Assembly (NCBI GenBank): GCA_016180645.1
Contig: JACPAV010000018.1
Location: 62,001 to 121,034, forward strand
DNA from: Nitrospirota bacterium
Lineage (GTDB): Bacteria > JACPQY01
Reading direction: 5' to 3'
DNA: 59,034 nucleotides
Positions 20,078 through 53,070 of the stretch are shown here, piece by piece. A program made the translations under genes and the position numbers. Below the pieces are notes generated by a model that had not been told where the DNA came from, did no database searches, and was given only the letters and a program-made list of their open reading frames with translations. Position 1 is the first letter of the stretch. Each line of letters opens with the position of its first letter.

Positions 20078-21604
20078 ATGAAGGTTCTTCTCGTCCAATC
20101 GCCTCGTTACTACTGGCCTTACGTCGGTGAGGGCGACAATCACCTGATGCCGCAATGGATGCCCTGTCTCGCGGCGTCGATCCGGCAGGCGGGTCACAGC
20201 GTACGCGCGGTCGATTGCATGGCCTCCCACATCGGATGGAGAAGCCTCGCCGACATCATCCGAGAAGAAAAGCCCCACGTCATCGGCGTCGGCGAGAATC
20301 ACTGCCTCTACGCGCAGGAAGCGATCAAGGTCTTCCAACTCGCGAAGTCGATCGATCCCGGCATAAAGACGATTGCCGGCGGAGTCCATTTCACCAATTT
20401 GGTGGAGCCGAATCTCATGGCCTATCCCATCGACTACATCGCGATCGGTGAAGGGGAGAAGACTTTCGTCGAACTATTGGACGAACTGGAGCGTCAAAAT
20501 CCGCGGCCCGACAAGGTGACGGGACTCGCTTATCGCACCAACGGCCATGTCAGCCGGACCGCGCCGCGCGTCCTCGAGCACGATCTCGACACTTACCCCC
20601 TGCCCGCGTACGACCTCATGCCGATGGAGCAGTACGGGAAATCGAAATACCTCTTCGCGCCCGGCGGGACGACCGCCCAGCACAGCCGGGGGTGCGTCAG
20701 CCGCTGCAATTTCTGCGTCTGGTGGGTGCAGAACGCGGATCGAAAGATCATCAACGGTGAGGAAAAACTGTTCCCCCGCTGGCGCACGAAAAGCGTGGGG
20801 AGGACCGTCGAGGAAATCGAGATTCTCAGCCGGCGGTACGGGAAGAATTTTCTCGTGTTCGTCGACGACGCCTGGAACATCGACTGCCACTGGACCGACA
20901 AATTCGCAAACGAGATGGCCCGCCGCCATCTCCCCACCCAGTGGTTCGCTTTCATGCGCGCCGATTGCATGATGCGGGATGAACGGCTGGGCCTCAACGA
21001 AAAACTCGTCCATGCGGGAATGACCCACATCAGCATCGGGGTTGAGCGCCATCAGGACACCGATCTCGCCGAAATGCGGAAGGGATTTTACAAGGACGAC
21101 TTGACCCGCGAGTGTTTCGGCATGCTCAAGCGGAATCATCCGACGGTGTTCCGACAAGGAACCTTCATCGTCGGTATCCGCGACGAAACGCGTGAAAGCA
21201 TGTACCAGCAACTCCAGTACGCGAAGGAATTGGGACTGGATTATCCCGGCTTCCATCCTCTCACGCCGGTCCCCGGCACGGAGGTATGGGAGGACGCAAA
21301 AGCCCGAGGGTGGATCGAGGTGGACGATTTCTCCTATTACGACTGGATGACGCCGATCATGTCGAGCACCCATCTCTCGCGCCGGGAGATCGAGGAAATC
21401 CTCATCGACATCAGCCGCAAATTCGTCGGCCTGCGATGGCTCATGCGGGGCCTCGCGGATCGGCACGCCTACCGCCGGAACATGTACGTCTGGTGGCTCC
21501 TGGTCAGCCTGCGCATCGCGGCGGACGCGCTGCGACAAAAACTCAATCCGTTCCGAAAGAGCGTGTATACCGCGCTCGTCAAGCCGACCTGGTATGATCA
21601 CTGA
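20078..21604 (+). CDS. Cobalamin-binding radical SAM protein 1 (BchE/Grs-like)
   Basis: B12-binding N-domain (AGGVHFT, IGEGE), SRGCVSRCNFC, FVDD, TPVPGT...DDFSYYDWMTPIM. Confidence 0.9.
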   Translation: MKVLLVQSPRYYWPYVGEGDNHLMPQWMPCLAASIRQAGHSVRAVDCMASHIGWRSLADIIREEKPHVIGVGENHCLYAQEAIKVFQLAKSIDPGIKTIAGGVHFTNLVEPNLMAYPIDYIAIGEGEKTFVELLDELERQNPRPDKVTGLAYRTNGHVSRTAPRVLEHDLDTYPLPAYDLMPMEQYGKSKYLFAPGGTTAQHSRGCVSRCNFCVWWVQNADRKIINGEEKLFPRWRTKSVGRTVEEIEILSRRYGKNFLVFVDDAWNIDCHWTDKFANEMARRHLPTQWFAFMRADCMMRDERLGLNEKLVHAGMTHISIGVERHQDTDLAEMRKGFYKDDLTRECFGMLKRNHPTVFRQGTFIVGIRDETRESMYQQLQYAKELGLDYPGFHPLTPVPGTEVWEDAKARGWIEVDDFSYYDWMTPIMSSTHLSRREIEEILIDISRKFVGLRWLMRGLADRHAYRRNMYVWWLLVSLRIAADALRQKLNPFRKSVYTALVKPTWYDH

Positions 21605-21610
21605 AACCTT

Positions 21611-23026
21611 GTGCGCGTAGCTCTGATCAATCCGAACATGGACAGCCTGAAGGCCGTCGGGGCCTTCAGCAAAGTGTACTGCGTCATGCCCCCGATCAAC
21701 CTGGGTTACCTCGCCGCCGTGCTCGAAAAGGAGGGACACGAGGTGACCGTCATCGACGAAGCCGCGGAAGGGCTGAGCCTCGCGGAAATCATCGACCGCC
21801 TCCGACGGGCCTCCCCGGGCATGATCGGCATGGGCTGCCTCACACAGTCCGCGCCGCATGTCATGGAAATCAGCCGGGCCATCGCCGGGGCCTTTCCCGG
21901 CCTCCCCCGCGTGATGGGCAACACCCACGCGGACTATTTCGCGGAGCCGATTCTCCGCGAGGGTGATGCGGACGTCGTGGTCCACAACGAAGGGGAATAC
22001 ACCTTCGCCCACCTGGCACGAACCTTCGAACACAAGGGCGACTTGCAAGAGGTCGAAGGGATTTCCTATCGGGACGGCGACCGGATCGTCCGCACGCCCC
22101 CGCGAACGATGCAACCGGATCTCAATCGGATCCCCTACCCCGCGTGGCACCTCTTCCCGCGCTCCCGCTACCGGCTTTTCACCTTCGCCGAAATCGAGCG
22201 GCCGGGCACGCTCATTCTCGGGTCTCGCGGCTGCCCGTTCAAGTGCAACTATTGCAGCCTGCTCATCATGGGACACGACCGCCGGCGGCGCACGCTCGAA
22301 GACATGGCCGACGAAATGGAGTTCATGCACGAAACGTACGGCTACAGGCAGATCTCGTTCATCGATCCGATTTTTCCCTTCAGCCGGAAGGAAGGATTGG
22401 AGTTCGCTCAACTCCTCGTGAAACGGGGTCTGAACCGGAAGATCGTGTGGACCACGGAAACCCGCGTCGATCTCGTGACGCCGGAGCTCCTCGAGGCGCT
22501 GAGGGAGGCCGGCTGCCGCAGGGTCATGTACGGATTCGAGGTCGGCTCCGAGGAAAGTCTCGATGCCATCGACAAGGGAACGACGATTGACAAGGCCCGC
22601 CGCGCGGCCAAATGGACGAAGGAAGCGGGCATGGAAATCATCGGCTTCTTCATGGTCGGTTGCCCCGGCGAGACGCTGGAATCGATCGACCGTACCGTGC
22701 GGTTCTCACATGAACTGGACGTGGATTTCGCGAAGTTCAATGTGTTCGTCCCGTACCCCGGCACGGAGATCTTCGAGGAGTTCAGCAAGAAGAACGGCGG
22801 TCTCCCCACGGATTGGGTGCGATACACGAGCTACCCGACGGGCGGAAACCCTCCCGTCTACATTCCGCCCGGACTGTCCGTGGAACAGCTCATCGTGGCC
22901 CAGCGACGAGCCCACCGGATGTTCTACCTCCGTCCCAAGATGATCGCGAGACACATGTTCAAAATCCGCACGATTCCTTTCTCTCATATGGTGTACGGCG
23001 CCCTCGGTCTTCTCGGGGAGAACTGA
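21611..23026 (+). CDS. Cobalamin-binding radical SAM protein 2
   Basis: LINP...PPINLGYLAA, NEGE, SRGCPFKCNYC, ETRVD, GCPGET, PYPGT. Confidence 0.92.
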   Translation: MRVALINPNMDSLKAVGAFSKVYCVMPPINLGYLAAVLEKEGHEVTVIDEAAEGLSLAEIIDRLRRASPGMIGMGCLTQSAPHVMEISRAIAGAFPGLPRVMGNTHADYFAEPILREGDADVVVHNEGEYTFAHLARTFEHKGDLQEVEGISYRDGDRIVRTPPRTMQPDLNRIPYPAWHLFPRSRYRLFTFAEIERPGTLILGSRGCPFKCNYCSLLIMGHDRRRRTLEDMADEMEFMHETYGYRQISFIDPIFPFSRKEGLEFAQLLVKRGLNRKIVWTTETRVDLVTPELLEALREAGCRRVMYGFEVGSEESLDAIDKGTTIDKARRAAKWTKEAGMEIIGFFMVGCPGETLESIDRTVRFSHELDVDFAKFNVFVPYPGTEIFEEFSKKNGGLPTDWVRYTSYPTGGNPPVYIPPGLSVEQLIVAQRRAHRMFYLRPKMIARHMFKIRTIPFSHMVYGALGLLGEN

Positions 23027-23158
23027 ATCCCTGCTCACAACGCGTCAGATGGGCGAGACCAGTACGCCGCGGGTACCCGCCCGGCCCCGCCAGATGTACA
23101 GACCCGGTCCACACAAAGCCAATGCGGGCGTGATCTTTGCAGCTTGCCGAAGAAAATT

Positions 23159-23962
23159 CTACAAGGTGGAGGCGGACGGTTTGGCCAGCAGGAAAGCGAA
23201 TTGGGTACGATCGTGCTTGAACTCAATGCCCCCGACGTTGGGCAGCCTCCTCAGAAGGGTCTGCACTTCGGACGCCTCCCGGGACCTTCGGATCGATTCG
23301 AGCGTGGCCTTGCGGAGGCCACGGAGCAGATGCACCCGCTCAAGGAGTTCCAAGTAGACTCGGAAAAGACGCACTTTCCAGTGACTGCGACTGAAATCCC
23401 ATAAGACCAACCATCCTCCCGGTTTCACTACCGCCCACATCTCCCGAGCCATTTGTTCCGGATTCTCGAAGTGATGGATCGATCCCTCCGAAAAGACCAG
23501 ATCGAAAAACAGCGGGCGAAATGGAAGCGATTTCGCGTCGTTACGCACGAGCAAGACCGGATTTTCGGCGGTCGAGTATTTCCTACACAGGCTTAGAATC
23601 TCCCGGTCCACATCGGATCCGACCCAGATGGACGGAGACGACGGCATTCTCCTCCGCATGATCTCCGTCATCACGCCGCTCCCAATTCCCACGTCGAGCA
23701 CGGACCGGATATTCCCGTTCCAGAGATGCTGCCATTTCTGGACACGCCGGTCCGCATAGGCAACCCGCCTGTCCCAGCTCTGGCGCACGAACTGTTCCTT
23801 GGTGATTCCCTCGAAATCGCTTCCCGGCGGAGTGTGCCCGTCGGGGGCGTCGCCTTCCCGGCAGACCGAGGGAGAGGGAGAGACCCGCGATGGAATGGAC
23901 CGCGGTCCCGCGCTAAATGGGTCGATCAAATTCGACGATTCGCCCAACATGGGGGAGTGCAT
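23159..23962 (-). CDS. Class I SAM-dependent methyltransferase
   Basis: VLDVGIGSG, DAKSLPF, FDLVFS..SIHHF, VKPGGWL; exact start uncertain. Confidence 0.85.
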   Translation of the reverse strand: MHSPMLGESSNLIDPFSAGPRSIPSRVSPSPSVCREGDAPDGHTPPGSDFEGITKEQFVRQSWDRRVAYADRRVQKWQHLWNGNIRSVLDVGIGSGVMTEIMRRRMPSSPSIWVGSDVDREILSLCRKYSTAENPVLLVRNDAKSLPFRPLFFDLVFSEGSIHHFENPEQMAREMWAVVKPGGWLVLWDFSRSHWKVRLFRVYLELLERVHLLRGLRKATLESIRRSREASEVQTLLRRLPNVGGIEFKHDRTQFAFLLAKPSASTL

Positions 23963-24695
23963 CCTTCTCCAGATACTTTGAAAGAATGAAGAGCGTATTG
24001 CCCGCGAGAATCCGTTCGCCCAGAGGTCCCTCCCGAATCACAAAGGTTGAGTTCTGACACTCCAGGTCGCATGCCTTGATCACCGGCGTGGCATCCGACG
24101 CTTCCCGAACACGGAGCCGGGCCACCGCACATAGGCGCGTCGTGGTCAGGTACCGGAACGGCACGTATAGGGCAATATCCAGCCGTGGGCCTATCATCTC
24201 GAACAACGCCGTGTCCCAAACGTCGGTCTCCAGGCCCCGAAATCCCAGTTCGCAGAGCAAACCGATCAGCGGCTCGGACACACGGGTGGCGAGCGGAGTT
24301 GCCCTGCCGTCGTCTCGAGGAACAAGTCTTGGGTCACGCGTTTGACGAAGGAGAAGGCGCCCAAGACGCAGGAGCAACCCGTTTTCGCGAGCGAGCCGGT
24401 ACACCCCCCAGTCGTTAACAACCACCTCGTAGGGGTCGCCGACGGCCTTCGACAGGAGAGAGAATAGCTGCCCAATCCTGCGCAACCCCGATTCGCCAAC
24501 GGGAGGGGTCAGAAGACTGAGGCGCTTGCCTTTGCCGCAAACGTCTTTCACCATCCGGTCGGCCCACACGGAGGAGGGGATCAAATGCTCGCAAAACTCC
24601 GAGCCAATGTAGAAGTGGTCGCACCGATCCAGCCAGGGAGAGAGATCCTCACGGGAAGGTGAGATGAACCTAGCCCTGACCACTCTACCAGGCAT
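23913..24695 (-). CDS. U32-family partner protein (UbiV-like)
   Basis: YIGSEFCEHLIP, LLTPP, EVVVNDWG, LGRLL, TTRLC...CDLEC, GNTLF; coupled to the upstream U32 gene, start placed at ATG 24695. Confidence 0.7.
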   Translation of the reverse strand: MPGRVVRARFISPSREDLSPWLDRCDHFYIGSEFCEHLIPSSVWADRMVKDVCGKGKRLSLLTPPVGESGLRRIGQLFSLLSKAVGDPYEVVVNDWGVYRLARENGLLLRLGRLLLRQTRDPRLVPRDDGRATPLATRVSEPLIGLLCELGFRGLETDVWDTALFEMIGPRLDIALYVPFRYLTTTRLCAVARLRVREASDATPVIKACDLECQNSTFVIREGPLGERILAGNTLFILSKYLEKDALPHVGRIVEFDRPI

Positions 24696-25776
24696 GCCGG
24701 GGGGAGTCCGGGGGGTAATAGCAGGTTCTCGGGCCGCAGTTCCTACCGAAAACGCGGCGGTACTCAAGACAGCTCTCTCTAGCATGGTCTGAGTCTCGCT
24801 TGAAACCTTCGTCCCCTTGCCGCGTCAGGGCTGACCGGATGAGGCGTATCGTCTGGGTCTTGCGTGTAGTCGTGCTTCCCCTGTTCACAATCTTGAGATA
24901 CCTGATTCCTATTCGAACGAGGAGTGGAATGTCGCATAGAGCACATGCGGCGTAGACATCATGTTCTGCCAACACTTCTCGGACCTTTTCCTCGAGGGGA
25001 CGTCCTCTCTCATCCATACCCTTGCCCTGCTTCCGCTCAATGCTCCTCGCATGAAGGCAAGCCAGAGCCGGCCGACCGGCGGCATGTCTCAGGCGATCCG
25101 GTACCAGGCGCATGGCGGCTTTGGCCGCATGGGTGGCCAGGAGCCTGGTCTGCAAAGAGCCCGGTATCTCGTGCGCGAGATTGCAGAAGCCGTCCTCGAA
25201 GGGGCAGCGATCGTGAAACACAAAGGCTTCGAACTCCAGCTCGGGGTAAGCGACACAGAGCCGAGCCATTTCGCGGAGGGTAACATGGCGGGGCAGGACG
25301 ATCCTACGTATCGGGAACCGCAGGTAGAACTTGATCGCTTCCGTGTTGTACACCACGCCAAGACAGCTCAGAGTGAGAGGAAGGGGAAACCGACTGGTTT
25401 CCAAGCTCCGCAGAAGCCCCAAGTCCGCGACGATCACCCCGTCGACGCCCGCGTCCTGAGCCCGCAACGCCTGCTGCATCGCCACCCCCAGGCTCTGTTC
25501 GTCGTAGAAAGTATTGAGTGCAAACTGGACGCGCAGGTTGGAACCGTGGGCCATCTTGACCAATTCCCTCAGTTGTTTCTCGCCATCCAGATTGCAAAGG
25601 GGATTGTCGCGCCGGTTGGTGGACGATCGTGTGGCACCTGCCCCCCGAAGACCGCAGTACACTTCGGAAGCCCCAGCCTCTGCCAACGCGGGGGCCTCGG
25701 TTGGAAAATCCATTCCCGTTACAACCCGGATTTGTCCTCGGACGGTTGTGGGAGGGCCGGTCATCACATCGAACAC
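24685..25776 (-). CDS. Peptidase U32 family protein (UbiU/TrhP/RlhA-like Fe-S hydroxylase)
   Basis: GASEVYCG, ALN, VDGVIVADLG, RRIVLPRHVTL.E, CPFEDGFC (CX6C), ACALC, LKIVNRG, C-terminal CYY. Confidence 0.85.
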   Translation of the reverse strand: MFDVMTGPPTTVRGQIRVVTGMDFPTEAPALAEAGASEVYCGLRGAGATRSSTNRRDNPLCNLDGEKQLRELVKMAHGSNLRVQFALNTFYDEQSLGVAMQQALRAQDAGVDGVIVADLGLLRSLETSRFPLPLTLSCLGVVYNTEAIKFYLRFPIRRIVLPRHVTLREMARLCVAYPELEFEAFVFHDRCPFEDGFCNLAHEIPGSLQTRLLATHAAKAAMRLVPDRLRHAAGRPALACLHARSIERKQGKGMDERGRPLEEKVREVLAEHDVYAACALCDIPLLVRIGIRYLKIVNRGSTTTRKTQTIRLIRSALTRQGDEGFKRDSDHARESCLEYRRVFGRNCGPRTCYYPPDSPRHAW

Positions 25777-25827
25777 GCACAGACTTCTATCGACAACATG
25801 CCGGCGAAACCACCCCGCAAAAGGCCA

Positions 25828-27285
25828 TCAAGATTGGGGCCGAAAACTCTCCAACGCCCCGGCACGGGATCGTGTCGCAAATTCCCAAAGAGCCGAGAGT
25901 CCGCCCGACAGCACCTCGCGCACAGGTGTTTTCTTCAGCTGAAACAGGTGGCGGTAAATCATTCGGGGACGAATGTAGAACTTGAAATGCGCGATCTTCT
26001 GCATCTCGATCAGGCTGGCCGAACTCAACCGGTCATGCCGATACGGCAACTCCTTCGAGGGGTAAGCCCCGTATTCCGACCAATCGTGCGACCGGATGGC
26101 CCCGGCCTCCTCATATCGCCCGTAGAGCAGAGTCCCCGGGTACGGGACGACAAGGGGAAAGTTCGCCAGGTCCAAGTCCAAACTCTTCGCCAAATCCATG
26201 GTGCGGCGGAAGCTTTCCCAGTTCTCGCCGGGCAGACCGAGCATGAAGAATCCCACAACCTCGAAGCCGACGGCCCTCGCCGTCGCGACGGCCTCTCGCG
26301 CTTGGGCCACACTGGTGGACTTGCCCACCCCGCGCAAGAGGTCCTCGGAACCGCACTCAAGACCAAACATGACTCTCGTGCACCCGGCTTCGCGCATGGA
26401 CTCACCGAGGGAGCGTGTAAACAGGTCCGGCCGCGTCTCCGAGACCCATGTGATTTTCTTGTGAAGTCTCCGGCGTATGATCTCCCCACACACCTCGTCA
26501 CACTGGGCCGCGTTCACGGGGAAAATCGCGTCGACAAACACAACGGCTTCGATGCCAAAGTGTTCGATGAGGTATTCGATCTCATCTGCAACGTTCTTGC
26601 CCGACCGCCGGCGAAAGCCCGGCCGGACGATTTTCCAATGCGCGCAGAATTGACAGCGATACGGGCAGTCTCGCCCTGCGGCAACCAACATGACTTTTCT
26701 TGCAATTTCCGCCAGCGGTATGGCTCGGTACTTCGCCAACGGTGCGAGGTGCCAGGCTGGGAAGGGCAGCGCATCCAGGTCCACGATCGGCTCCCGGTCG
26801 CCCGTATCGTGGATGGCCCCTCCCTCGATATAAGAGAGTCCGAGGACATCTCCAGGGTTTCGACCCTGCTCCAGCCTTGCCGCCAACTCGGACATTGCCT
26901 CCTCCCCTTCACCCCGCACAACAAAATCTGCGTACCCTCGGAGGAGAAACTCCTCGCGAAATGTAACCGCATGCAAGTTGCCCATCACGACAGGCGCCAA
27001 GCGGGCCTCACGGACGCCTTGGCCGATCGCAACAGCCTCCGTGGCACTTGGAGTGACGCAGGTAATTCCCACGAGGCCGGGCCCAGCCTCCCCGATCCTT
27101 CGCACGACCTCCTCCGCGCAGAGTTTCTCCGCAAATGCATCAATCAAGACGACAGAATGCCCGCGCTGTTCGAGGACGGCGGCAATGTATAACAGGCCCA
27201 TGGGCGGCAGGGCATGATTGTATCGCGCAAACAGTCGCATCGTTTTTCTCTGATCGCATGAAGGATTAACGAGAACGATTTTCAT
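25828..27285 (-). CDS. Cobalamin-binding radical SAM protein 3 (paralog of protein 2)
   Basis: PPMGLLYIAA, RGEGE, GRDCPYRCQFC, ETRPD, GLPGE, PYPGT; GAGGAG RBS. Confidence 0.92.
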   Translation of the reverse strand: MKIVLVNPSCDQRKTMRLFARYNHALPPMGLLYIAAVLEQRGHSVVLIDAFAEKLCAEEVVRRIGEAGPGLVGITCVTPSATEAVAIGQGVREARLAPVVMGNLHAVTFREEFLLRGYADFVVRGEGEEAMSELAARLEQGRNPGDVLGLSYIEGGAIHDTGDREPIVDLDALPFPAWHLAPLAKYRAIPLAEIARKVMLVAAGRDCPYRCQFCAHWKIVRPGFRRRSGKNVADEIEYLIEHFGIEAVVFVDAIFPVNAAQCDEVCGEIIRRRLHKKITWVSETRPDLFTRSLGESMREAGCTRVMFGLECGSEDLLRGVGKSTSVAQAREAVATARAVGFEVVGFFMLGLPGENWESFRRTMDLAKSLDLDLANFPLVVPYPGTLLYGRYEEAGAIRSHDWSEYGAYPSKELPYRHDRLSSASLIEMQKIAHFKFYIRPRMIYRHLFQLKKTPVREVLSGGLSALWEFATRSRAGALESFRPQS

Positions 27286-27328
27286 TGTGGTTCACTCCTC
27301 TCGCCTTGGTTCCATATCCCGTCCTGCC

Positions 27329-42129: not shown

Positions 42130-42845
42130 GCGGCCTTCGAGTCGGAGGGGAACACACGCAGGAGAAGATCGTCCCAGAAACACCGACGGGCATCCAGCGA
42201 GGCATGGGCCCCAACCTGGATGTCTTCCCACGCCCTTCCTCCCGTCGCGTACTTCCCGATGAGTTCGGAGAAGATCCTGCCGTGTTCCTTGTCTTGCTCA
42301 ATGTGGAGGTGGAAATACTCCATGTCATCCCTGGACACCTGTCCCCATGCCTCGAGGCCTTGCCGGAGGTAGCCGAACATGGTCGGCAGCGACCATTCAT
42401 GGCCGGGACCCATCGCACCCATCCCCACCCAAAGCGAGGAGCGCCGGGTGAGCTTCCAATGCGTTGCGACAAACCTATCGGTTCCCGGCGCCCAATTCAC
42501 GAAGTCCCACGTCTTTCTGGGCACGCCCACGGACAGCAGAAACTTCTCATACAGGCGCGGATGACTCTCGGAGGGGTTCACTCCCCCATACTCGTCCGCC
42601 AAGACCTCTCGAAGCTTGTCTGAAATCTCACCCGGACCGGACGTCTTCATGAGCGACGTAATGTACTTGGGGAAAACCTTCACCAACTGATAGTGCTGGA
42701 GGGCAAAGGCCCGAACTTGATCCATCGTGAGATCGCCCCGCGACATCCTTTGCAGAAAAGGGTGGTGAAGAGCCGGATGTGCGAAGACGGTTCTTTCAAG
42801 CGCCGAAACGATGCTGCGGCCCGAGCCTCCCTCTCGACTGGACAT
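42126..42845 (-). CDS. Heme-oxygenase-like diiron oxidase (CADD/PqqC/TenA-like iron-containing redox enzyme)
   Basis: HHPFL, LADEYG...SHPRLY...GHEW...YFHLHIEQDKEH gives the E, H, E, H, D, H ligand set. Confidence 0.85.
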   Translation of the reverse strand: MSSREGGSGRSIVSALERTVFAHPALHHPFLQRMSRGDLTMDQVRAFALQHYQLVKVFPKYITSLMKTSGPGEISDKLREVLADEYGGVNPSESHPRLYEKFLLSVGVPRKTWDFVNWAPGTDRFVATHWKLTRRSSLWVGMGAMGPGHEWSLPTMFGYLRQGLEAWGQVSRDDMEYFHLHIEQDKEHGRIFSELIGKYATGGRAWEDIQVGAHASLDARRCFWDDLLLRVFPSDSKAA

Positions 42846-42973
42846 GGTCGAATTGTATCGTTTTGACTCTACCTTGCAAATCTCCACGCCTTCACGGGAT
42901 GCGCCGCTCGATGAAAGACCTCCCCTCGGCTCCACGGATTCATGGTGTTTGCTGCTGGATCGGCCTCCTCCCG

Positions 42974-44618: not shown

Positions 44619-45827
44619 ATGACACGAAGAAGGGCGATGGGGGTCGGGATCCTGATTTCATTCGTTGCCGCGGCTGTCTTCTTGTTGATGCGAAGCGGCA
44701 GAGGGTCAAGAGAATGGGAGATCTCCCGCAACACCGCGCCGGTTTTTTTCTACGATCGCTTTCCCCGCGCCACCGACCAAGCCTCCGAAACGCTCTTGAA
44801 GCGGCTGTTGAGCGATTACCACGACCCCGCGGATGGACTTTTTTTTGATTTCCTCGGAAACGGAAAAGGAGTTTTGTATCAGCTCAATGCTTTCGGCAAA
44901 CCTTTTGACTTTCATGTAAATGGATCGACAAAGACGGCCGCCTTCAATGCCTGGGTGGGAATCACCGCGGCGACCGCTCTCGCGGCCAAGAGCGGCGTTG
45001 TCCATCGATCCCTTCTCGAAGACTTGGCCGGATCCATGCGCCAACGGTTCTGGCAAGACGATGAACAATCCTACGACATTCTTGGGGACGGGAAGCAGTA
45101 CGATGCCATCAATGACGCCCTCGTCGGGGCGTTCTATCTGTACTTGGCCCAACGGGTCGGACATGCCCCCTACCTGGACTGGGGCAGAGATGGAATCGAG
45201 GCCGTCATGAGACGCATTAACGACGGTGGAAGGATCGCTTGTTGCGAAATCGCCGGCCGGCCCTACCCTGAGATGTACTCGCGGCATGGCCTGATTCCGG
45301 CCGTTCTGGCGTACGCCTTCCAGCTAACCGGAGAAGAGCGGTATGCCCGCTCCGCCGTAGCCGTCGCCGATCTCTTCCTCAAAGAATTCTGGACGGGGAC
45401 TTATTTCCGCGATTGGATCTCGATAGGAACCGACTCGGAAATCGGCATGGGCATGTTGGAGGTGTTCGCCATGACCGGCCGCGAAAAGTACCTCCACGCC
45501 GTCGAAACATTGGTCGAACACTATCACAATCCGCATGGGGAGATAGCCCACGATCCGGGAGATCACAACGACGTGCGCCACGATCAGCATGTCAACTCCG
45601 TTGTCGACCAGGCGGAGTTCATCATCCTCCTGCGCAATCTTGCCCAGATCACAGGGCGCAGGGAGGTACGCCTCTTGGCAGATCAAAGGGCCGCACAATT
45701 GAGTGCCTGCTACAATGAGCACCTGCACCTGTATCCCCACATGTGCTTCGCGGGTCCCCGGCGGGAAGGCGACTATTTCTCCGCCATCAATGCCCTCGCG
45801 TATCTCTCCTTGTCCGGCGGACTCTGA
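44619..45827 (+). CDS. Membrane-anchored (alpha/alpha)6 six-hairpin glycosidase-like protein
   Basis: AAGGAG RBS, N-terminal TM, repeated L...TG...Y...A helical hairpins (FQLTGEERYARSA, FAMTGREKYLHA, AQITGRRE). Confidence 0.6.
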   Translation: MTRRRAMGVGILISFVAAAVFLLMRSGRGSREWEISRNTAPVFFYDRFPRATDQASETLLKRLLSDYHDPADGLFFDFLGNGKGVLYQLNAFGKPFDFHVNGSTKTAAFNAWVGITAATALAAKSGVVHRSLLEDLAGSMRQRFWQDDEQSYDILGDGKQYDAINDALVGAFYLYLAQRVGHAPYLDWGRDGIEAVMRRINDGGRIACCEIAGRPYPEMYSRHGLIPAVLAYAFQLTGEERYARSAVAVADLFLKEFWTGTYFRDWISIGTDSEIGMGMLEVFAMTGREKYLHAVETLVEHYHNPHGEIAHDPGDHNDVRHDQHVNSVVDQAEFIILLRNLAQITGRREVRLLADQRAAQLSACYNEHLHLYPHMCFAGPRREGDYFSAINALAYLSLSGGL

Positions 45828-45973: not shown

Positions 45974-46705
45974 ATGATTGAGGGGAAACGCGTCTCGCTC
46001 ATTCTGCCTTGCCTGGATGAGGAAAACGGCCTGCGCATGCTGTTGAAGAATATTCCGAGTGCCGTAGATGAGACGATCGTCGTGGATAACGGCTCGACCG
46101 ACAAGACCGCCGCGATCGGCCGGGAAGCCGGAGCCCGGGTCGTTCATGAACCGCGCCGCGGCTACGGGCGAGCGTGTCTCCGCGGGCTCACGGAAGCGCG
46201 GGGAGAAATCCTGGTCGTCATGGATGGGGACGGGACCTATCCCGTGAACCGCGTGGAGACCGTCGTGAGCAAGATGGTGCGAGAGAAGTATGACTTCCTG
46301 GTTACGAGGCGGCTTCCCCTCGGAACTCCTTCGATTCGAAGCCGCCTCCGGAGGCTCGGGTGCTACGTGCTTGATCAGACCGCCCGGCTCCTCTTCGGCA
46401 TTCCACGGATGGATACTCAATCCGGATTCTGGGCTCTACGACGAAGCGCTCTGCCCCTTCTTGGGCCCGGAAGTCCGGGAATGTCCTTCTCAGAAGAAAT
46501 CAAGATTGAAGCTTTCACGCGAAAAGACATGCGGGCCGGCCAATGGATCGTTGAATACCGGGGAGAACCCAGGCCGGGAACCAGCAAGCTCCGGCCCTTC
46601 CGGGACGGGCTCTCCACTTTCCTATTCCTCTGGATACAGAGAGGTCGCCATTTTCTGCGGATTCACGGTGAAGAACATCATAAAAACCACGGACCCACCC
46701 AGTAG
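45974..46705 (+). CDS. GT2 glycosyltransferase, DPM1-like (polyprenol-phosphate sugar synthase)
   Basis: ILPCLDEE, VVDNGSTD, GYGRA, MDGDGTY, DTQSGF, R.GTSKL. Confidence 0.88.
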   Translation: MIEGKRVSLILPCLDEENGLRMLLKNIPSAVDETIVVDNGSTDKTAAIGREAGARVVHEPRRGYGRACLRGLTEARGEILVVMDGDGTYPVNRVETVVSKMVREKYDFLVTRRLPLGTPSIRSRLRRLGCYVLDQTARLLFGIPRMDTQSGFWALRRSALPLLGPGSPGMSFSEEIKIEAFTRKDMRAGQWIVEYRGEPRPGTSKLRPFRDGLSTFLFLWIQRGRHFLRIHGEEHHKNHGPTQ

Positions 46706-48042
46706 TAGCCCTCGCAGGGAACAATGAATCGAAAACGGGAGGACCGAGACATCGCCACGCGGTCCCGAGAAGGATCCGCCTTCAGCTCGCGCGCGGTTAC
46801 GACGGTAAAATCGGAATCGGCAACCTCCAATGTAGAACCGGCGGGAGCCGACACGCGAACGAGCTTCCCGGCCAACCAAAATGAACGGACGTGCGCCGAT
46901 ACGTCTTTGCACGGCCCCGGAGGCGGTGTCGGCAGTCGCCAGGTCTGGTTTCCGTACCCCGCCCGCTTCATCGCCAAGTAGGGTTCGAGCGTGTGACACG
47001 CCGTTTGGGCGAATTCGGACCCAAAAACGCTTGACCTCCCCGCCTTGAATGAATGGGTGGCCGGATCATATCTGTCCCGAACCATCTTCCATCCGACCCG
47101 AAACGGGCGGGATGTCTCCGGGAGGTACCCTTGGAGACCCAGCAGCGCGATGGACGCGGGATACACGTGGGATTCATCCAACGCCGTCAGAAGGTATTCC
47201 ATCAGCTCCTGGTTGACTTTCCGGAACGCTTCGTAGCTGCTCACGCCTACGCCTTTCCACATGAGAAGCGTCAGCCCGTCTCCCACGATATAGTCCGGAA
47301 AATACTCCCCCTTGTAGGCTGAACTGAGGATCGATGCGTCGTTTGCGGCTCGCGCGCCTTGAATGATCTTGTCCCCAACAGGCAATCCCACTTTCAGCAA
47401 ACCCATGATCGCCGCCGGGTTCGCCTCGTTGGACGAAACGGAATACCCTTCGCCTGTCCTTCGTACGGCTCTCGAGTAGTCGAGGTTCACCCAGCCGCCG
47501 TCCTGGACACGCAGGCCGATCAAAAGTTTCATGTGATCCGAGAGGGATCCCGGGGAGCGCAACACGTCGCGGGATCCCGCCAGTTCCAACACCTTTGGAC
47601 CGGCGCAGCCCATGTCAAATCCGGGGACAATCCCGCCATGCGAATCCGTCGATTGGCGGATGAATTCAAGGATCTGATTCGTGAGGGTTTCTGATCCGGG
47701 AATGAGGGCTGACGCCGCCGCAAAATACAGAATGCAATGAAGATCGTACCGGAGGCCTAGATCGGATTCACGCTGACTGCCCGTCGCGCGATCGATATGC
47801 CGGGGCAAACGGTCCAACTCGTCCGGTGTGTGCTTCTTGACCTCCTCAAAATGCTCCGCTGTTCTCCGAATCAGCCACTTGGCCGCCTGATCAATCTCAA
47901 CTTGTGGAAAATCCATTTCGTCGGAAACCATTTCGACCGTGCGCGGCGATCTCTCCGCGAACACGCAGGCGGGCAGCCCGACACAGCCGACTGAAATGAG
48001 CAGGGCCCATCGTCCACCAAGCGCCCCAAATCTTCGCGCCAT
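46678..48042 (-). CDS. Exported alpha/alpha-toroid protein (prenyltransferase/terpene-cyclase-like repeats)
   Basis: Signal-peptide-like N-terminus, IDQAAKWL, QDGGW, AAIMGL, small beta-rich C-domain; start uncertain (48042-48120). Confidence 0.5.
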   Translation of the reverse strand: MARRFGALGGRWALLISVGCVGLPACVFAERSPRTVEMVSDEMDFPQVEIDQAAKWLIRRTAEHFEEVKKHTPDELDRLPRHIDRATGSQRESDLGLRYDLHCILYFAAASALIPGSETLTNQILEFIRQSTDSHGGIVPGFDMGCAGPKVLELAGSRDVLRSPGSLSDHMKLLIGLRVQDGGWVNLDYSRAVRRTGEGYSVSSNEANPAAIMGLLKVGLPVGDKIIQGARAANDASILSSAYKGEYFPDYIVGDGLTLLMWKGVGVSSYEAFRKVNQELMEYLLTALDESHVYPASIALLGLQGYLPETSRPFRVGWKMVRDRYDPATHSFKAGRSSVFGSEFAQTACHTLEPYLAMKRAGYGNQTWRLPTPPPGPCKDVSAHVRSFWLAGKLVRVSAPAGSTLEVADSDFTVVTARELKADPSRDRVAMSRSSRFRFIVPCEGYYWVGPWFL

Positions 48043-48166
48043 GATGGCGAGCGATTTTCCTTCCATGAACATAAATCGACCGGTTATCATGTCCCTTCCC
48101 GCTGGAGAAATCAATATCATTGTTCCATCTCCACGGATGTCGTCGCGCCCCTCGCAGCATCATGAT

Positions 48167-49612
48167 TCAGTATGGAGAGCAACGGTACACGCGGAGCCCG
48201 CCGTCTCGGCTGGAGAAAAGGTACTCCAGCCGCGCGGCGCCCACGAGGGAATCGCCCGCCGAGGGCGTGACCAGAATTCCATATCCCTGGGGCGGGCGAC
48301 GGCTCGGCGCCAAGCTATCGCCGAAGAAAAATGGCGGCGGCCCACCCACCCGCTCTCCCACGTAGGCCCAAGACCATCGGGGAGCAAACCAGATGCAAGG
48401 GGAGCGGCTCTGAAAAACGAAATCGGGTTCCGTAATGTCCATCGCGACGAAATCCGGCCGCTCCCGGGCGAGGTGGGCCTGAAACCGTCGTTCGAGCTCC
48501 TCATAGTCCGAGCCATACCTCACTTTTGGGTTTGGAAAAAGCGACGCCGGGAAACCCCTGCGCAGGATCGGCCACGATTGGACGCCAAGGGCCAGGAGAA
48601 GAATGACGACACCGTATTTCCGGAAATGCGACGATACCCGATTCTCGGCAAGCCGGTCGAACACCTGCCAACTCCACAGGATCAGCCAGGGGAGAAGAAA
48701 CAACAGGAAACGGATTTCAAATCCCTCTCCAAAGACAGTCATCAGGACCACCGTCCCGATCACCGTCGCGATCAGGACAAAGTAGGTGCCGAAGTACCAT
48801 CTGCTCTTGACCCACCAACCGAGCAGACCGCCGACAATCCATAACGGTCCGATCACGCGGAAGATGTCTGCCACAACGGCAAGATCGAAGCGTCTCGCGG
48901 CCCGCGCGGGAAACAGAGCGTGACGCTTGGCGTAGTAGGCCACCGCGTGAAAAGGATTGCCGAATACGATCGCGTCCACCGCCAAAGACAAGAACACCGG
49001 AAGGACAATCCACATCATGCTCCTCCACTCTTTGCGGTGAACCATGATCAGGAACCAAGCCCCGGCGGCGAAAGCCCCCTCAAACTTGACAAGGGGGAGA
49101 CACCCGAACAAGGCGGCGGCGGCCTTGCCGTGCCCGAGAAGCCCCGACCAGAGCGCGCCAAACAGAACCAGGGCGAAGAAAGGTTCCGGGAGAGCCGTCC
49201 AATGCGCCACGCTGAACCAAGGATGCAGCGCCAGCAACAGGACCGGCGCCGGATGCGGCCGCCCCCCCGCCTCCTTGGAAAAAAACACGATCATGATCAA
49301 AACCGCGGCCCCGCAGAGAACGCTGAACATTCGGCCGGAGGTGACCGGATCCAAGCCCAGGGCGCTTCCGGCGTGAGTGGCCAGCCACACCAGAGGCATC
49401 CAAGGACGACGCTGAGGATTCGTCAACAAACGAGGATTTTGATCGGCACAGTAAGCCATGATGGCGTTGATCTCCTCCACGCAGCCGATGTCGGACCCGA
49501 GCCCAATCCGACGCGCCGTGGGGAAGTCCCGGACGCGCAGAAGGGAAATCACGGAGCCAACCACCCAGGCAAGAACCACAAGAAAACACGTGAGATGCGC
49601 CCTTCGGTTCAC
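48167..49612 (-). CDS. GT-C-like multipass membrane protein
   Basis: LDPVTSGRMFS, LALHP, PEPFF, LPLVKFEG, EIRF, soluble C-domain. Confidence 0.65.
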   Translation of the reverse strand: MNRRAHLTCFLVVLAWVVGSVISLLRVRDFPTARRIGLGSDIGCVEEINAIMAYCADQNPRLLTNPQRRPWMPLVWLATHAGSALGLDPVTSGRMFSVLCGAAVLIMIVFFSKEAGGRPHPAPVLLLALHPWFSVAHWTALPEPFFALVLFGALWSGLLGHGKAAAALFGCLPLVKFEGAFAAGAWFLIMVHRKEWRSMMWIVLPVFLSLAVDAIVFGNPFHAVAYYAKRHALFPARAARRFDLAVVADIFRVIGPLWIVGGLLGWWVKSRWYFGTYFVLIATVIGTVVLMTVFGEGFEIRFLLFLLPWLILWSWQVFDRLAENRVSSHFRKYGVVILLLALGVQSWPILRRGFPASLFPNPKVRYGSDYEELERRFQAHLARERPDFVAMDITEPDFVFQSRSPCIWFAPRWSWAYVGERVGGPPPFFFGDSLAPSRRPPQGYGILVTPSAGDSLVGAARLEYLFSSRDGGLRVYRCSPY

Positions 49613-49651
49613 GGATGGGGAAGATCATGGCATGATCCCGGTCACCAAACA

Positions 49652-51178
49652 ATGCCGGGAGAAAGAAGTCATCCACGCCGCCCGCGAAGACCTTTGCGGT
49701 GGATCCTTGCCGCAACTCTCCTGTGGCTTTCGCTGCTGGTGGCAGCCGGCTACCATCTCAATGATCTTTCCTCGGCTGCAAAGATTGACCGGAGGATCCT
49801 CCATACCATCGATGACCACTGGAGAGGAACGGTTCCCGTATGCGCTCTGGAGAAGCCGAGTCTCCTCTTCTATTCAAACCCCCGGTTCGGTTTCGGCCTG
49901 ATCGTCATGGCGTTTCAGGGCCTCTGGAGCCGCTGGGCCGGACTGGACCCCTTTCTGGGGTTCCGTTGGCTGAACGCCGCCATCAGCGCGGTCGGCGCGG
50001 CCGTCTTCCTTCTCCTCGCTCGAAACTCGATCCCACCCCTGCTTCGATGGGGCGTGATTCTCGCCGCCTTGGGGCAACCCTTGTCCCTCCTCCTATCGAT
50101 TTCAGGATTTCAAGAAGTTCTGTGCGCTTGCCTGCTTCTGCTGCTCGCTCATTCCTGGGGAAGGAACAAGATGGTCTGTGCCGTGCTTGCAGGCTACCTC
50201 CCCCTCGTGAGGGCGGAGACGATCTTCATCACGCTGGGGGTGTCCATCTCTCTCATGAGGTCCCGGCGCATTCTGCCTGGGATCGCCGCTCTCGCGCCTC
50301 TTTCGGCCTTCCAACTGGCCGGGAGATGGCTGTTGGGCGACTGGCCGGATGCCATCTCCTACGCCGCTCTCGGGCCGTTTCAGATCTCAGGAAGATCCTA
50401 CTGGACTGAGCTCAAGCCCCATCTCTTGGAAACGTTGACCTCCTACGGCTGGATCACCAGCCTGGGCCTTCTGGCGGCCGTTGGAACAGGCTTGTGGATC
50501 CCCAAAGCGCGAACAAACGCCCTCCTCGCCGCTTCCTACCTTCTGGGTTCGGCGGCCGCCTTCACCGTTTCTCCCGCGCAATTCCCGTGCGGCCGGTACG
50601 TATTCCCCGCCTTCGTCCTCTCGCTCCTCTGCCTCCCGCAAGTCGTGGCAAACGCCGTGAATAGGTTCCCAAGCTTGAAGCGATCTCTCCCGCCTGTTTT
50701 CGCGGTATGGGCGATGATGTCCTTCGTCGAAGGTTTGTCCATCTGGCGCCGCGGACTCCCCCCGCAGTCGAGCGCGTACCAGTTCGGCGCTCTCGCGAAG
50801 GCGGAAAACGACCCCTTTCGCGGTTCTCGGGAGTGGCTCCTCGACTATCTCAAGCGTGACCCTGTCGATTGGGTCTTCTTCTCGTGGGAGTTCTACGATG
50901 TCCGGTCCTTCACCGCCGAAAACTGTTTCATCTTCCGCCGACATCAACTGCTTTTCGGCCCGCCCCGTCCCCCCGACGACTACGTCATCGCCCAATGGAA
51001 AGGAGGCGTACCCGTGCTCGATCTCGGAGCCATGAAAGTGCGCAAGTCATTGCCGGAAAACCAACCCGGTCTGATGATCACGAGATCCAGGAGATACGCC
51101 CCCTCCTCCGGCAACTGGGAGAAGATCGCGGTCTTTCCAAACGACGTCCAAGTCTTCCGGCACACACCCGTCAGATGA
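49652..51178 (+). CDS. GT-C-like multipass membrane protein (related to 48167-49612)
   Basis: LDPFLGFRWLN, FQEVL, LPLVRAET, GRYVFP; start placed at ATG 49652 within ORF 48920..51178. Confidence 0.65.
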   Translation: MPGERSHPRRPRRPLRWILAATLLWLSLLVAAGYHLNDLSSAAKIDRRILHTIDDHWRGTVPVCALEKPSLLFYSNPRFGFGLIVMAFQGLWSRWAGLDPFLGFRWLNAAISAVGAAVFLLLARNSIPPLLRWGVILAALGQPLSLLLSISGFQEVLCACLLLLLAHSWGRNKMVCAVLAGYLPLVRAETIFITLGVSISLMRSRRILPGIAALAPLSAFQLAGRWLLGDWPDAISYAALGPFQISGRSYWTELKPHLLETLTSYGWITSLGLLAAVGTGLWIPKARTNALLAASYLLGSAAAFTVSPAQFPCGRYVFPAFVLSLLCLPQVVANAVNRFPSLKRSLPPVFAVWAMMSFVEGLSIWRRGLPPQSSAYQFGALAKAENDPFRGSREWLLDYLKRDPVDWVFFSWEFYDVRSFTAENCFIFRRHQLLFGPPRPPDDYVIAQWKGGVPVLDLGAMKVRKSLPENQPGLMITRSRRYAPSSGNWEKIAVFPNDVQVFRHTPVR

Positions 51179-53070
51179 CTGAAGACCCTCTCCGAATCGT
51201 CGGAAAGCCGCCCGACTCACCCGCGTGGAACTGGGTGATCCGCGTCTCCCTTCTGGCGCTCGGCATGAGCACCTCTCTGGCTCTCGGAAACACGCCGTTC
51301 TTCACGAACGAATACGACGACATCGTCGGGTTCGGAAAGGAAGTGACCGGGTTTGAATGGGACGATCTCTGGAGAGTATTCGCCGCAGGATCGCCCCGCA
51401 TGACCAACTGGCGCTACCGGCCCGTACCGGACCTGTTCGTGATCGTGATGCACATGTCGGTCGGCGCCGTCCCGATCTACTTTCGGATCTTCTACGGCCT
51501 CGTCCTGGGCACGTTCCTCAACGCCGTCTACGTTGTGGGCAGAAGGCTTGGGGGATCAAGTCGTGTCGCCCTGGCGACCGCGGTCGTATCGGGGTTCCTC
51601 GGTCCGGTCCTTTGGGAAACCTGGTTCTACAGCGGATCGGAGTTGGTGGCCGCAACGTTTCTCTACATCGCGCTCGGAACCTTGGCCCGAACCGAAACGC
51701 GATCTCGCCGCTGGCCCCAATGGATCTTGTTCTCGTTGGCGTTTGGCTTGGCTGTGTTCAGCAAAGAAACCGTCCGCGCCTATGGCCTGCCCGTCGTTGC
51801 CGCCTTCCTCTGGGCTCACCGCATGCGTCTCCGAAGCATCGGGGGCGTTTTGGCGCCTTCCCTTCTCCTGACCGGCCTGTCGGTCTGGCTCTCCAACCGG
51901 AATACGCCGCCACATTGGAGTTGGATCGCGAAGTTCATGCCCGGAGAAGAGGGGTTCTGGACTTCCGCTCAATCCCAACTCCTTAGCTTGGCCGCTCAAT
52001 GGACGACTCCTCTCGGCGTGGATTTCTTCCTTCTTCTCGCGGTCGGGACATCGGTGCTGAGTCTGAGTTCGGCCCGAAGCACCACTGCACGGCGATGGGT
52101 TCTCCTCGTAGGGATCATGCTTTTCATCGCTCACCTTGGAGCGCCGGTGCTCGAACCGGTCGTCTACTTCCAAGCGTACTACTACTCCAAACCGTGCTAC
52201 ACGTTCCTGCTCCTCGGACCCGCGTACTTCCTCCTCGGCTCAACAGCCGCTTTCTTCCGCCCGGCTCCGGGGACTCGGCTTGCGGCAGCCACCGCATGGA
52301 TCGTTCTCGCCATTCTGGCGGGTTCGGTCATTCTCTTCCCCTTCGGGAAAACCGACCCGTCCACCAGAGCGCTCCTACCGGTCCTCCCTCTCATCGCCCT
52401 CCTGGGAATTCGCGGGGGGGCCGCGCTTCTCTCCACACAGACAGATGCAGTGAGCAAATACGCGGGCCTACTGCTCTCCGTGCTGGTCTGCCTCTCGACA
52501 GGCTATCACTTGGTTGCCGGAACCATCAACCTGGCGAGCGAGACGATAGCCCGGGGAGAAGTGGACCATGGAATGCGCAAACATCTTGCGGGCATGGACC
52601 TGGAGGGCACGTCGGTCATCGATCCCGACCCGCTCTTCCCCTTGACGGCGAGATTCTTCGCCGTCTTTTCCGAGCAGCCGCCCCGGCGGGTTTTTGACTC
52701 GCCCTCTTGGCAGGAGGTCCTGGTGGCGGTGAGAGAGGGGCGGCTGGGCAACCGGAAAGTTCTGCTCTCCCACTGGGAGACCAAACCCGATCCCGGCGGA
52801 AAAAACCCCTCGGCGTTTTGCCTCGACTTGTCCTGGATGGACGAACACCACGACCTGATTGGAAAGTGGAAGGTGGAGAGACTGGCCTCGGCCTCCTGCC
52901 CGAAAGATTCGGATTTCGTCCTCTTGGATCGGTTCGGCTCCCTCGTCAGACAGGAAAAGTCCTCGTTCATCCACCTCCCTCTGTTCGCCAACGATATTCC
53001 CCGTCGAACCCAGCAGGGAGTTTCGCTGCTTCTTCGCTTCACGTTGGACCGCAGAACCTACTCTTTTTGA
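51175..53070 (+). CDS. GT-C-like multipass membrane protein (paralog of 31597-33405)
   Basis: EYDD, YRPVP, FSKE, many TM segments; ATGA overlap with the previous gene. Confidence 0.65.
   Translation: MTEDPLRIVGKPPDSPAWNWVIRVSLLALGMSTSLALGNTPFFTNEYDDIVGFGKEVTGFEWDDLWRVFAAGSPRMTNWRYRPVPDLFVIVMHMSVGAVPIYFRIFYGLVLGTFLNAVYVVGRRLGGSSRVALATAVVSGFLGPVLWETWFYSGSELVAATFLYIALGTLARTETRSRRWPQWILFSLAFGLAVFSKETVRAYGLPVVAAFLWAHRMRLRSIGGVLAPSLLLTGLSVWLSNRNTPPHWSWIAKFMPGEEGFWTSAQSQLLSLAAQWTTPLGVDFFLLLAVGTSVLSLSSARSTTARRWVLLVGIMLFIAHLGAPVLEPVVYFQAYYYSKPCYTFLLLGPAYFLLGSTAAFFRPAPGTRLAAATAWIVLAILAGSVILFPFGKTDPSTRALLPVLPLIALLGIRGGAALLSTQTDAVSKYAGLLLSVLVCLSTGYHLVAGTINLASETIARGEVDHGMRKHLAGMDLEGTSVIDPDPLFPLTARFFAVFSEQPPRRVFDSPSWQEVLVAVREGRLGNRKVLLSHWETKPDPGGKNPSAFCLDLSWMDEHHDLIGKWKVERLASASCPKDSDFVLLDRFGSLVRQEKSSFIHLPLFANDIPRRTQQGVSLLLRFTLDRRTYSF

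Follow-up and report, generated by a model that had tools for sequence, protein, structure and literature searches.

The DNA analyzed here (the window; 59,034 nucleotides of contig JACPAV010000018.1 of a Nitrospirota bacterium) is the final 59 kb of contig C15 of the source genome G000, which measures 4.7 Mb and is 97% complete. It carries a 33-kb locus in which nine genes of the B12-dependent radical S-adenosylmethionine (SAM) type (B12-rSAMs, rSAM1 to rSAM9) are interleaved with membrane proteins that are mostly of the GT-C class (Table 1). We found that this cluster is headed by a small unannotated peptide gene and that, on sequence evidence, it is two-tiered: a conserved core of the peptide, rSAM1, rSAM2 and, elsewhere in the genome, a methyltransferase designated c1 is joined by a poorly codon-adapted accessory island of 30 kb. 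The peptide-headed B12-rSAM/GT-C cluster is a real feature and suggests an undescribed system for peptide modification whose cell-surface tailoring extension is variable.

The peptide gene is a 27-codon open reading frame (ORF) that has a strong ribosome-binding site (RBS), lies just 5' of rSAM1 and has a counterpart in G001, a genome from a sister genus in the same family as G000; it falls outside the interval covered by an initial annotation of this DNA and was missed there. Peptides of this family comprise 15–41 residues, with 1–6 residues before the Trp of a W-[R/W]-P-x-P motif and a tail rich in Lys, Arg, and Pro behind it. Scanning of genome contigs gave 176 relatives of rSAM1, out of which 80 rSAM1-anchored loci were compared (L numbers label compared loci, C numbers contigs). 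Their records are labelled Omnitrophota, Elusimicrobiota, Myxococcota, Deltaproteobacteria, Oligoflexia, and others; the labels of four loci assigned to Klebsiella or Bifidobacterium (L074, L078, L084, and L095) are probably wrong, because their gene content matches that of the Myxococcota-labelled loci. The peptide ORF was found in 50 of the 80 loci under a strict rule and in 52 under a relaxed rule, compared with 2 of 80 for shuffled sequences. The 4.7-Mb genome of origin gave 13 matches, and the pattern W[RW]PxP[RK] is absent from every called G000 protein. Of the 28 genomes left, 15 carry a free-standing peptide gene with an RBS away from rSAM1.

The variation among these genes indicates that the peptide is coded and acts in trans. 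Among the 50 strict-rule ORFs, each of the six Arg codons and each of the four Pro codons occurs, 44 have an RBS, 10 encode tandem multi-core peptides, and 16, including that of the sister genus, are found on the opposite strand; this combination of synonymous variation, RBSs, multi-core copies, and opposite-strand copies shows that the peptide is coded and is no leader in cis. A cis-acting leader peptide was rejected because of the 16 opposite-strand copies together with the 15 free-standing genes. In a reciprocal search, the DNA pattern of the peptide gave 91 matches in metagenomes, and 80 of these loci were taken; within 4 kb of the pattern, the c1 methyltransferase was present in 61 and rSAM1 in 39. 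Where both flanks extended for at least 2.8 kb, rSAM1 was present in 20 of 26 loci, and 5 of the 6 misses were long chance ORFs.

Genome-level counts agree with the linkage. They come from a sample of 251 genomes, the phylum of one Myxococcota-labelled genome, and are tallies rather than tests, because related genomes are not independent and 6–10 candidates were scored per genome. The in-frame peptide motif occurred in 22 of the 36 rSAM1-positive genomes and in 1 of the 215 others (out-of-frame and W-C-P matches were excluded, as was an out-of-frame match in G199 elsewhere). The corresponding counts were 35/36 and 2/215 for clade B, to which rSAM2 belongs, 28/36 and 12/215 for c1, and 18/36 and 2/215 for clade D, to which rSAM5 belongs. 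The distribution of rSAM1 itself is patchy, with 36 positives among these 251 genomes and 6 among 151 genomes of an Omnitrophota sample, 5 of which belong to a sister subfamily. A c1-like family in 12 genomes without rSAM1, and W-C-P variants of the peptide pattern in G275, G326, and G238, whose genomes also lack rSAM1, possibly represent related systems. An in-frame TGA codon lies within the c1 match of G033 (C13:182129–182935).

The division into two tiers rests on the genome-level co-occurrence of the rSAM2-type and rSAM5-type enzymes with rSAM1. The rSAM1 proteins (family A) form a tight family of 49–58% identity over their full length, and both rSAM1 and rSAM2 have a CX3CX2C motif. Their codon adaptation (0.18 and 0.21, respectively) is native for this genome (0.163), compared with a median of 0.091 across the 22 genes that lie between 23159 and 53070. 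The c1 gene of G000 is on another contig, C57, and in G001 the core is kept with no GT-C neighbor. The 24 genes of the locus switch strand 10 times and thus do not form one operon.

We tentatively favor, at slightly less than an even chance, a leaderless system of the RiPP type (ribosomally synthesized peptides that are modified after translation), in which rSAM1 and rSAM2 act on the peptide as their substrate and the island tailors and glycosylates an envelope product. As in RiPP systems, a short dedicated gene is linked to a candidate maturase. In the first tier, the leaderless cationic W-x-P-x-P peptide would be modified by rSAM1 and rSAM2, usually together with c1; the likeliest chemistry would be radical C-methylation of the invariant Trp and Pro residues, or a C–C ring closure there. 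The tail rich in Lys, Arg, and Pro may serve as a recognition (follower) sequence, a logic found in the bottromycin and polytheonamide systems. The available parts of two papers describe B12-rSAMs that methylate peptide residues, including Pro (PMC10849626, PMC9204698), and those of a third describe repeated three-residue Trp motifs as radical SAM substrates (PMC12957482). In the second tier, the 30-kb island would be a later, variable acquisition, whose B12-rSAMs, U32 proteins, diiron oxidase, and methyltransferases may carry out oxygen-independent tailoring. The GT2 protein and the deacetylase could supply a polyprenyl-phosphate (amino)sugar, which the GT-C proteins would transfer on the outer face of the membrane, diversifying an envelope-displayed product. 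The gene inventory, the coding and linkage of the peptide, the co-occurrence across genomes, and the GT-C fold of one protein are shown, whereas the role of the peptide as substrate, the chemistry, and the meeting of its product with those of the GT-Cs are inferred. A stronger form of this proposal, in which the peptide is the scaffold of one oxygen-independent line (the core rSAMs converting Trp-x-Pro, a strain-variable set of further radical enzymes and U32 hydroxylases decorating it, and GT-C-fold proteins joining or glycosylating it at the envelope), appears unlikely to us.

Several observations weigh against peptide modification. The best curated scores of rSAM1 and rSAM2 are to BchE and HpnJ, enzymes with non-peptide substrates, and the two proteins score only 81–91 bits against TIGR03975 (cut-off 282); rSAM1 is likewise below the cut-offs of TIGR03975 (80.6 vs. 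281.85), ApyD (77.9 vs. 750), and TsrM (27.5 vs. 500), in that order. The peptide lacks a leader and a signal, no PqqD or RiPP recognition element family had a Pfam match in the window, and neither did any peptidase or exporter family expected of a RiPP system among the window proteins. A precursor gene that is often unlinked from its enzymes would be unusual. No peptide was found for 13 of the 80 genomes, mostly of one rSAM1 clade (looser patterns applied to 15 still-negative genomes gave mostly chance matches and 2 real peptides), nor near 7 of 10 sister-subfamily genes examined. The active sites of GT-C enzymes are on the outward side, while the peptide is cytoplasmic. The window GT-Cs have no close relatives in the other loci compared, and other rSAM1 arrays contain beta-propeller or multihaem membrane proteins in their place. 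The enrichment of GT-C genes near rSAM1 is only about two-fold: by a single hidden Markov model rule, with a profile seeded by the GT-Cs of G000 itself, they were counted in 13 of 80 loci and in 9 of 44 loci of at least 16 kb, compared with 9.6% of random G000 windows. The genome counts, too, come from one phylum of non-independent relatives.

The initial annotation proposed a lipid-linked glycan pathway for the entire 33 kb. A single pathway of that extent is unsupported, since the core is mostly without GT-C genes, the sister-genus core has none nearby, and no GtrA-type flippase (PF04138) was found in G000; for the GT2, deacetylase, and GT-C part the proposal is likely, and it furnishes the chief rival to peptide modification. 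According to this rival, which we regard as somewhat unlikely, the rSAMs tailor polyprenyl-linked sugars at the cytoplasmic face (in the way that HpnJ acts on a lipid-linked sugar made by a GT2 and then deacetylated), the GT-Cs transfer them, and the peptide is an unconverted subunit, activator, or regulator of rSAM1 and rSAM2. It would explain why BchE and HpnJ give the best family scores, HpnJ being described in the available part of PMC9204698 as contracting the ring of lipid-bound glucosamine, and it suits the coupling of GT2, deacetylase, and GT-C functions to rSAM4, the position of 13 of the 23 G000 B12-rSAMs within 8 kb of a GT-C gene (others lie in nucleotide-sugar clusters), the GT-C genes in 5 of 6 sister-subfamily Omnitrophota loci, and a peptide without leader, peptidase, or exporter. 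Against it, the tandem multi-core copies (10/50) suit a substrate better than a subunit, glycosylation genes are absent from most core loci, and a GtrA flippase was not found in G000.

It is distinctly improbable, in our estimate, that the locus consists of two unrelated neighbors, a peptide–rSAM1–rSAM2 unit behind which a gene sink, or a variable island for envelope glycosylation, has merely integrated. The low codon adaptation of the island, the strand switches, the absence of the island beside the sister-genus core, and a second rSAM/GT-C/GT2 locus without the core on C54 would all be expected in that case. Against it, the subfamilies of the island rSAMs are found again next to rSAM1 in other phyla, and the occurrence of clade D follows that of rSAM1 without linkage as well; both argue that the island rSAMs belong to the system, and argue less for the GT-Cs. 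Tailoring of membrane-lipid cores (hopanoids or membrane-spanning ether lipids) by the rSAMs, with head groups built by the glycosylation genes, is very improbable. The B12-rSAMs GrsA/B and Gmm have lipid substrates (available part of PMC11214058), Tes-like rSAMs occur in L022, L029, and L016, and L111 encodes a polyprenyl synthase and UbiA. The Tes-like protein is nevertheless far under the Tes cut-off (160 vs. 450), a Tes-type zinc ribbon (PF23545) was not found in G000, squalene-hopene cyclase is absent from all 5 genomes tested, G000 included, and the peptide would be left unexplained.

The radical SAM inventory of the initial annotation is confirmed: each of the nine genes carries a CX3CX2C or CX4CX2C motif, eight match PF02310 (that at 33394 below the cut-off), and the protein at 27658 is HpnJ-like, rSAM4 (27640/27658) matching HpnJ across residues 61–447. 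They have mutual identities of 23–39%, and 9 of the 23 B12-rSAMs of G000 lie within these 33 kb of 4.7 Mb. The gene at 38016 had been reported as broken. Contigs of sequencing runs X2 and X3 contain 134 letters in place of the 97 at 38720–38816 of the window, and the additional 37 nucleotides bring both halves of rSAM6 into one frame; homologs are ~43–45 residues longer there. A pseudogene was rejected because these contigs restore the frame (both runs belong to a single study and possibly represent the source samples). In the tree, rSAM3 to rSAM8 group with rSAM1 neighbors from other phyla with support of 0.975–1.0, and rSAM9 does so more weakly. Against the set of rSAM1 neighbors, rSAM2, 3, 4, 5, 7, and 8 scored 247–447 bits, compared with 100–251 bits for the 12 other G000 B12-rSAMs outside the C54 locus (L020 was left out of the scores and the tree as a duplicate of L012); those in nucleotide-sugar clusters mostly do not group with rSAM1 neighbors. 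One true rSAM8 orthologue was found, adjoining rSAM1. In support of the initial annotation, the orthologues recur together in other phyla and not in characterized clusters. Short Tes/TrsS-like radical SAM proteins lie within the arrays L022 (9695), L029 (15882), and L016 (7389).

Table 1. Features of the locus, with positions in the window (MFE, minimum free energy; TM, transmembrane helix; TPR, tetratricopeptide repeat).
Feature	Position	Strand	Evidence or remark
Unannotated 27-aa peptide gene, MTDTRSWWPAPRRKPRGPAKPIQTPSK; candidate precursor	19810–19893	+	Motif W-W-P-A-P, one variant of W-[R/W]-P-x-P
Stem-loop 3' of the peptide gene	19898–19958 (ends approximate)	+	MFE and centroid structure of 19780–20085, z -2.34
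rSAM1 (family A), core B12-radical SAM, 508 aa	20078–21604	+	PF02310 and PF04055; 76% to sister-genus orthologue
rSAM2 (clade B), second core B12-radical SAM	21611–23026	+	73% to sister orthologue; clade support 1.0
Class I SAM methyltransferase (family other than core c1)	23159–23962	-	Pfam
UbiV-like partner of U32 protein, start uncertain	23913–24785	-	E 1.6e-8 to L113:17547, which adjoins a U32 gene
U32-family Fe-S protein, UbiU-like	24685–25713	-	PF01136; E 1e-28 to L113:16459
rSAM3, divergent clade-B paralogue	25828–27285	-	Pfam, tree
rSAM4, HpnJ-like	27658–29199	+	No PF02310 match; clade with L043, L024, L016 (0.995)
GT-C 1, PMT_2/ArnT-like	29196–30764	+	Acidic pair after TM1; PMT_2 E 1e-5
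Polysaccharide deacetylase (DUF3473 type)	30764–31600	+	Family match
GT-C 2, TMTC-like	31597–33405	+	Without the WDD motif and TPR tail of relatives
rSAM5 (clade D), accessory, tied to rSAM1 at genome level	33394–34791	-	Clade support 0.999
GT-C 3 (probable)	34868–37102	+	ESM Atlas 0.95, no alignment; hhalign E 1e-3, probability 19%
Class I SAM methyltransferase	37106–38017	-	Pfam
rSAM6	38016–39541	+	Clade with L062 (0.995); apparent frameshift 38720–38816 an assembly artifact
rSAM7	39402–40709	-	Clade with L032, L045, L051, L052 (0.988)
rSAM8	40714–42129	-	Clade with L042, L045 (0.975)
Haem-oxygenase-like diiron oxidase, CADD-like, start uncertain	42126–42851	-	PF14518; TIGR04305 82 bits vs. 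cut-off 200
rSAM9, divergent	42974–44353	-	38% to L117:5477 (Omnitrophota array)
Membrane-anchored or exported protein, possibly GH88/GH127-like barrel	44622–45827	+	Sub-threshold Pfam matches only
GT2, polyprenyl-phosphate sugar synthase type	45974–46705	+	PF00535; best models AglJ and Dol-P-hexose transferase, sub-cut-off
Exported protein, no known family	46678–48072	-	2 relatives at 36%; no PDB match
Multi-TM protein	48167–49612	-	Weak: NF046093 E 9e-4; no match with local GT-C profiles
GT-C 5 (probable)	49652–51178	+	ESM Atlas 0.99 to PMT-type clusters, no alignment; weak in local profiles
GT-C 6, TMTC-like with acidic motif	51175–53070	+	PMT_2 E 9e-4; hhalign 97% to TMTC-like profile

Pfam matches bear out the GT2 protein, the polysaccharide deacetylase, the two methyltransferases, the U32 protein, and the diiron oxidase of the initial annotation, and the partner in its U32 pair resembles the partner in an Omnitrophota U32 pair. 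We take these U32 proteins to be of the Fe-S hydroxylase type; the UbiU equivalog cut-off is not reached (98.7 bits vs. 440). The two proposed alpha/alpha barrels are unproven: the 44622 protein has sub-threshold GH88/GH127 matches, no PDB sequence match, and no significant similarity to the GH76-like protein of L237, and the 46678 protein matches no family. Stop and start codons overlap at 29196, 30764, 31597, and 51175, in line with the proposed translational coupling. No polyketide synthase, nonribosomal peptide synthetase, nucleotide-sugar, Wzx/Wzy, or squalene-hopene cyclase family was matched in the window, again as noted initially. None of the locus proteins reaches a curated NCBIfam cut-off, which agrees with the initial statement of knowing no characterized pathway of this composition; the best models, BchE (TIGR02026, 204 vs. 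481) and the HpnJ equivalog (183 vs. 578), are matched at under half of their cut-offs.

Five of the six membrane proteins annotated as GT-C (29196, 31597, 34868, 49652, and 51175) are supported by evidence of differing strength, and for the sixth, 48167, the evidence is weak. The fold is evident for the 31597 protein, whose 19 best structural matches are all GT-C folds (STT3, AglB, AftD, ALG3, PMT, PIGU, ArnT, and kin; best Z 11.8), in agreement with Foldseek. The alignment-based model has a mean confidence of 56.6 and is confident in its N-terminal part only; the single-sequence fold has a pLDDT of 38. Its own record and 44 relatives gave a TMTC-like consensus, and 16 of these 45 match PMT_2; searching PDB sequences with alignment A2 brought up nothing but TPR matches. 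The WDD acidic motif that follows TM1 in most relatives is absent from the 31597 protein and its three closest relatives. GT-C genes were present in 7 of the 19 loci with at least three rSAMs (from a hand-set list of 15 GT-C loci), and in both L247 and L264, where the sequence covered contains no rSAM1, a GT-C gene has a peptide gene next to it. The membrane proteins of L016 were rejected as GT-Cs; by sequence, three combine TM segments with a beta-propeller-like part, and two combine TM segments with a multihaem cytochrome c.

Further observations concern the membrane proteins. Multihaem cytochromes c with a membrane anchor, and proteins that combine TM segments with a beta-propeller-like part, recur in the rSAM1-type arrays L016, L022, L050, and L235 and are named by no family. 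In L247 (2756–7402), a 1548-residue protein with 21 TM segments and a PMT_2 match adjoins the peptide gene, an SGNH-like gene, and rSAM5. L010 (G000 C54:59000–76000) contains two B12-rSAMs, about six GT-Cs, and a GT2, with no peptide or rSAM1; an rSAM of this locus has 44% identity to L024 neighbors. An in-frame TGA lies within a PMT_2 match at G000 C53:79835–80206. At 10 kb upstream of the locus, the window encodes a TMTC-like GT-C with a TPR tail and an intact DD motif (8401–10161, minus strand). An exported Thr/Cys-rich repeat protein (55417–59034, plus strand), open at the contig end and with paralogues on other contigs, is a possible glycosylation target.

Elsewhere in the window, a molybdenum cofactor cluster (moaA, mobA, moaE, moaC/B, tauE, and moeA; 1019–6737, plus strand) is conserved in G001, and two AAA/STAND-type ATPase genes, one with TPRs (10995–14812, minus strand), are defence-like. 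A palindromic repeat at 19586–19700, with ~200 blastn matches in G000, two further copies in the window, and very high contig depth, is like a miniature inverted-repeat transposable element or a repetitive extragenic palindrome. The stem-loop behind the peptide gene is not a T-tailed terminator by scan and has no Rfam match. The window DNA is present in groundwater metagenomes, no RNA dataset was listed as containing it, and the nearest rSAM1 orthologue is in a record labelled 'Nitrospirae bacterium'.

No description of such a system was found in the literature covered, which leaves aside subscription journals and supplements (RiPP-mining supplements could list the precursor), and the available parts of PMC12931638, PMC11214058, and an Omnitrophota preprint (10.64898/2026.06.07.730766) give no account of such loci. 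For the B12-radical SAM arrays of uncultured phyla, the peptide is a concrete candidate substrate missed by annotation, whose gene accompanies two conserved families of enzymes in genomes labelled Myxococcota, Omnitrophota, Elusimicrobiota, and Deltaproteobacteria. If it is modified, it would represent a leaderless RiPP class matured by enzymes on the BchE/HpnJ side and not by the known peptide methylases; if not, it would be a new kind of small B12-rSAM partner. Either outcome would offer an entry point into large rSAM/U32/GT-C islands. If the peptide is also the scaffold, the locus would encode a surface modification derived from a RiPP, varying in the manner of an O-antigen locus among uncultured bacteria from several phyla.

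By analogy, the locus appears to resemble B12-rSAM RiPP systems (clavusporin, PoyC, and BotRMT) and multi-core WPR precursors, yet it lacks their defining features. In ArnC/ArnD/ArnT and three-component Gtr glycosylation, a polyprenyl-phosphate sugar synthase and a deacylase act with GT-C transferases. The locus likewise has a GT2 of the polyprenyl-phosphate sugar synthase type, a deacetylase, and GT-Cs, so that donor synthase and transferase are present at the family level (AglJ-type cut-offs are not reached); it differs in its six divergent GT-Cs, the absence of a GtrA match in G000, and the radical enzymes and peptide alongside. In the hopanoid cyclitol-ether branch, HpnI is the GT2 and HpnK the deacetylase. 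The combination of GT2, deacetylase, and HpnJ-like B12-rSAM (HpnJ: PMC9204698, available part) is shared with that branch; by contrast, no squalene-hopene cyclase was found, the HpnJ cut-off is not reached, and the branch has no place for GT-Cs and a peptide.

Among peptide systems, the clavusporin cluster mpc (MpcA/MpcB/MpcC; PMC10849626, available part) also has a short precursor beside a B12-radical SAM enzyme, with Pro among the methylation targets. The mpc system is actinobacterial; it combines a leader with an S9 peptidase, a transporter, DUF5825, and a CX7CX2C motif, whereas the present locus has no leader, a cationic core, and two CX3CX2C enzymes, with mpc partners unmatched in the window. 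The WPR cyclophane RiPPs (WprA/WprB/WprC/WprP), according to the available part of PMC12957482, pair a radical SAM enzyme with a precursor of one or three Trp-led three-residue repeats; their motif is W-P-R with a Trp–Arg cross-link, compared with W-[R/W]-P-x-P here, where no S9 protease was matched and the enzymes have B12-binding domains. Several B12-rSAMs act on one ribosomal peptide in bottromycin (BotRMT1-3) and polytheonamide (PoyC) biosynthesis, enzymes that occupy a separate sequence similarity network cluster (PMC9204698, available part); rSAM1 and rSAM2 are far below TIGR03975, and no YcaO or NHLP leader was seen. The Omnitrophota rSAM/U32/GT-C arrays (L107, L108, and L111) belong to the sister subfamily of ~46% identity and differ in their peptide, which is rich in Lys and Arg and ends in Trp, and in a SPASM maturase; in three sister-subfamily loci, both precede the rSAM1-like gene, and a PapB-like SPASM maturase was not found in G000 (best tblastn match 23% identity, E 4e-9). 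One such cluster (L111 and L115, genome G056) has two peptides rich in Lys and Arg with a conserved R-x-G-R-V-L-W end, two SPASM-type rSAMs, a polyprenyl synthase, UbiA, four B12-rSAMs, sulfatases, and a GT-C. Several B12-rSAMs, GT-Cs, U32 proteins, and a deacetylase recur across the Omnitrophota arrays, L029 with L113 holds the same type of U32 pair, and L107, L108, and L111 share with the present locus rSAM1-like and clade-B enzymes, U32, GT-C, and a small cationic Trp peptide.

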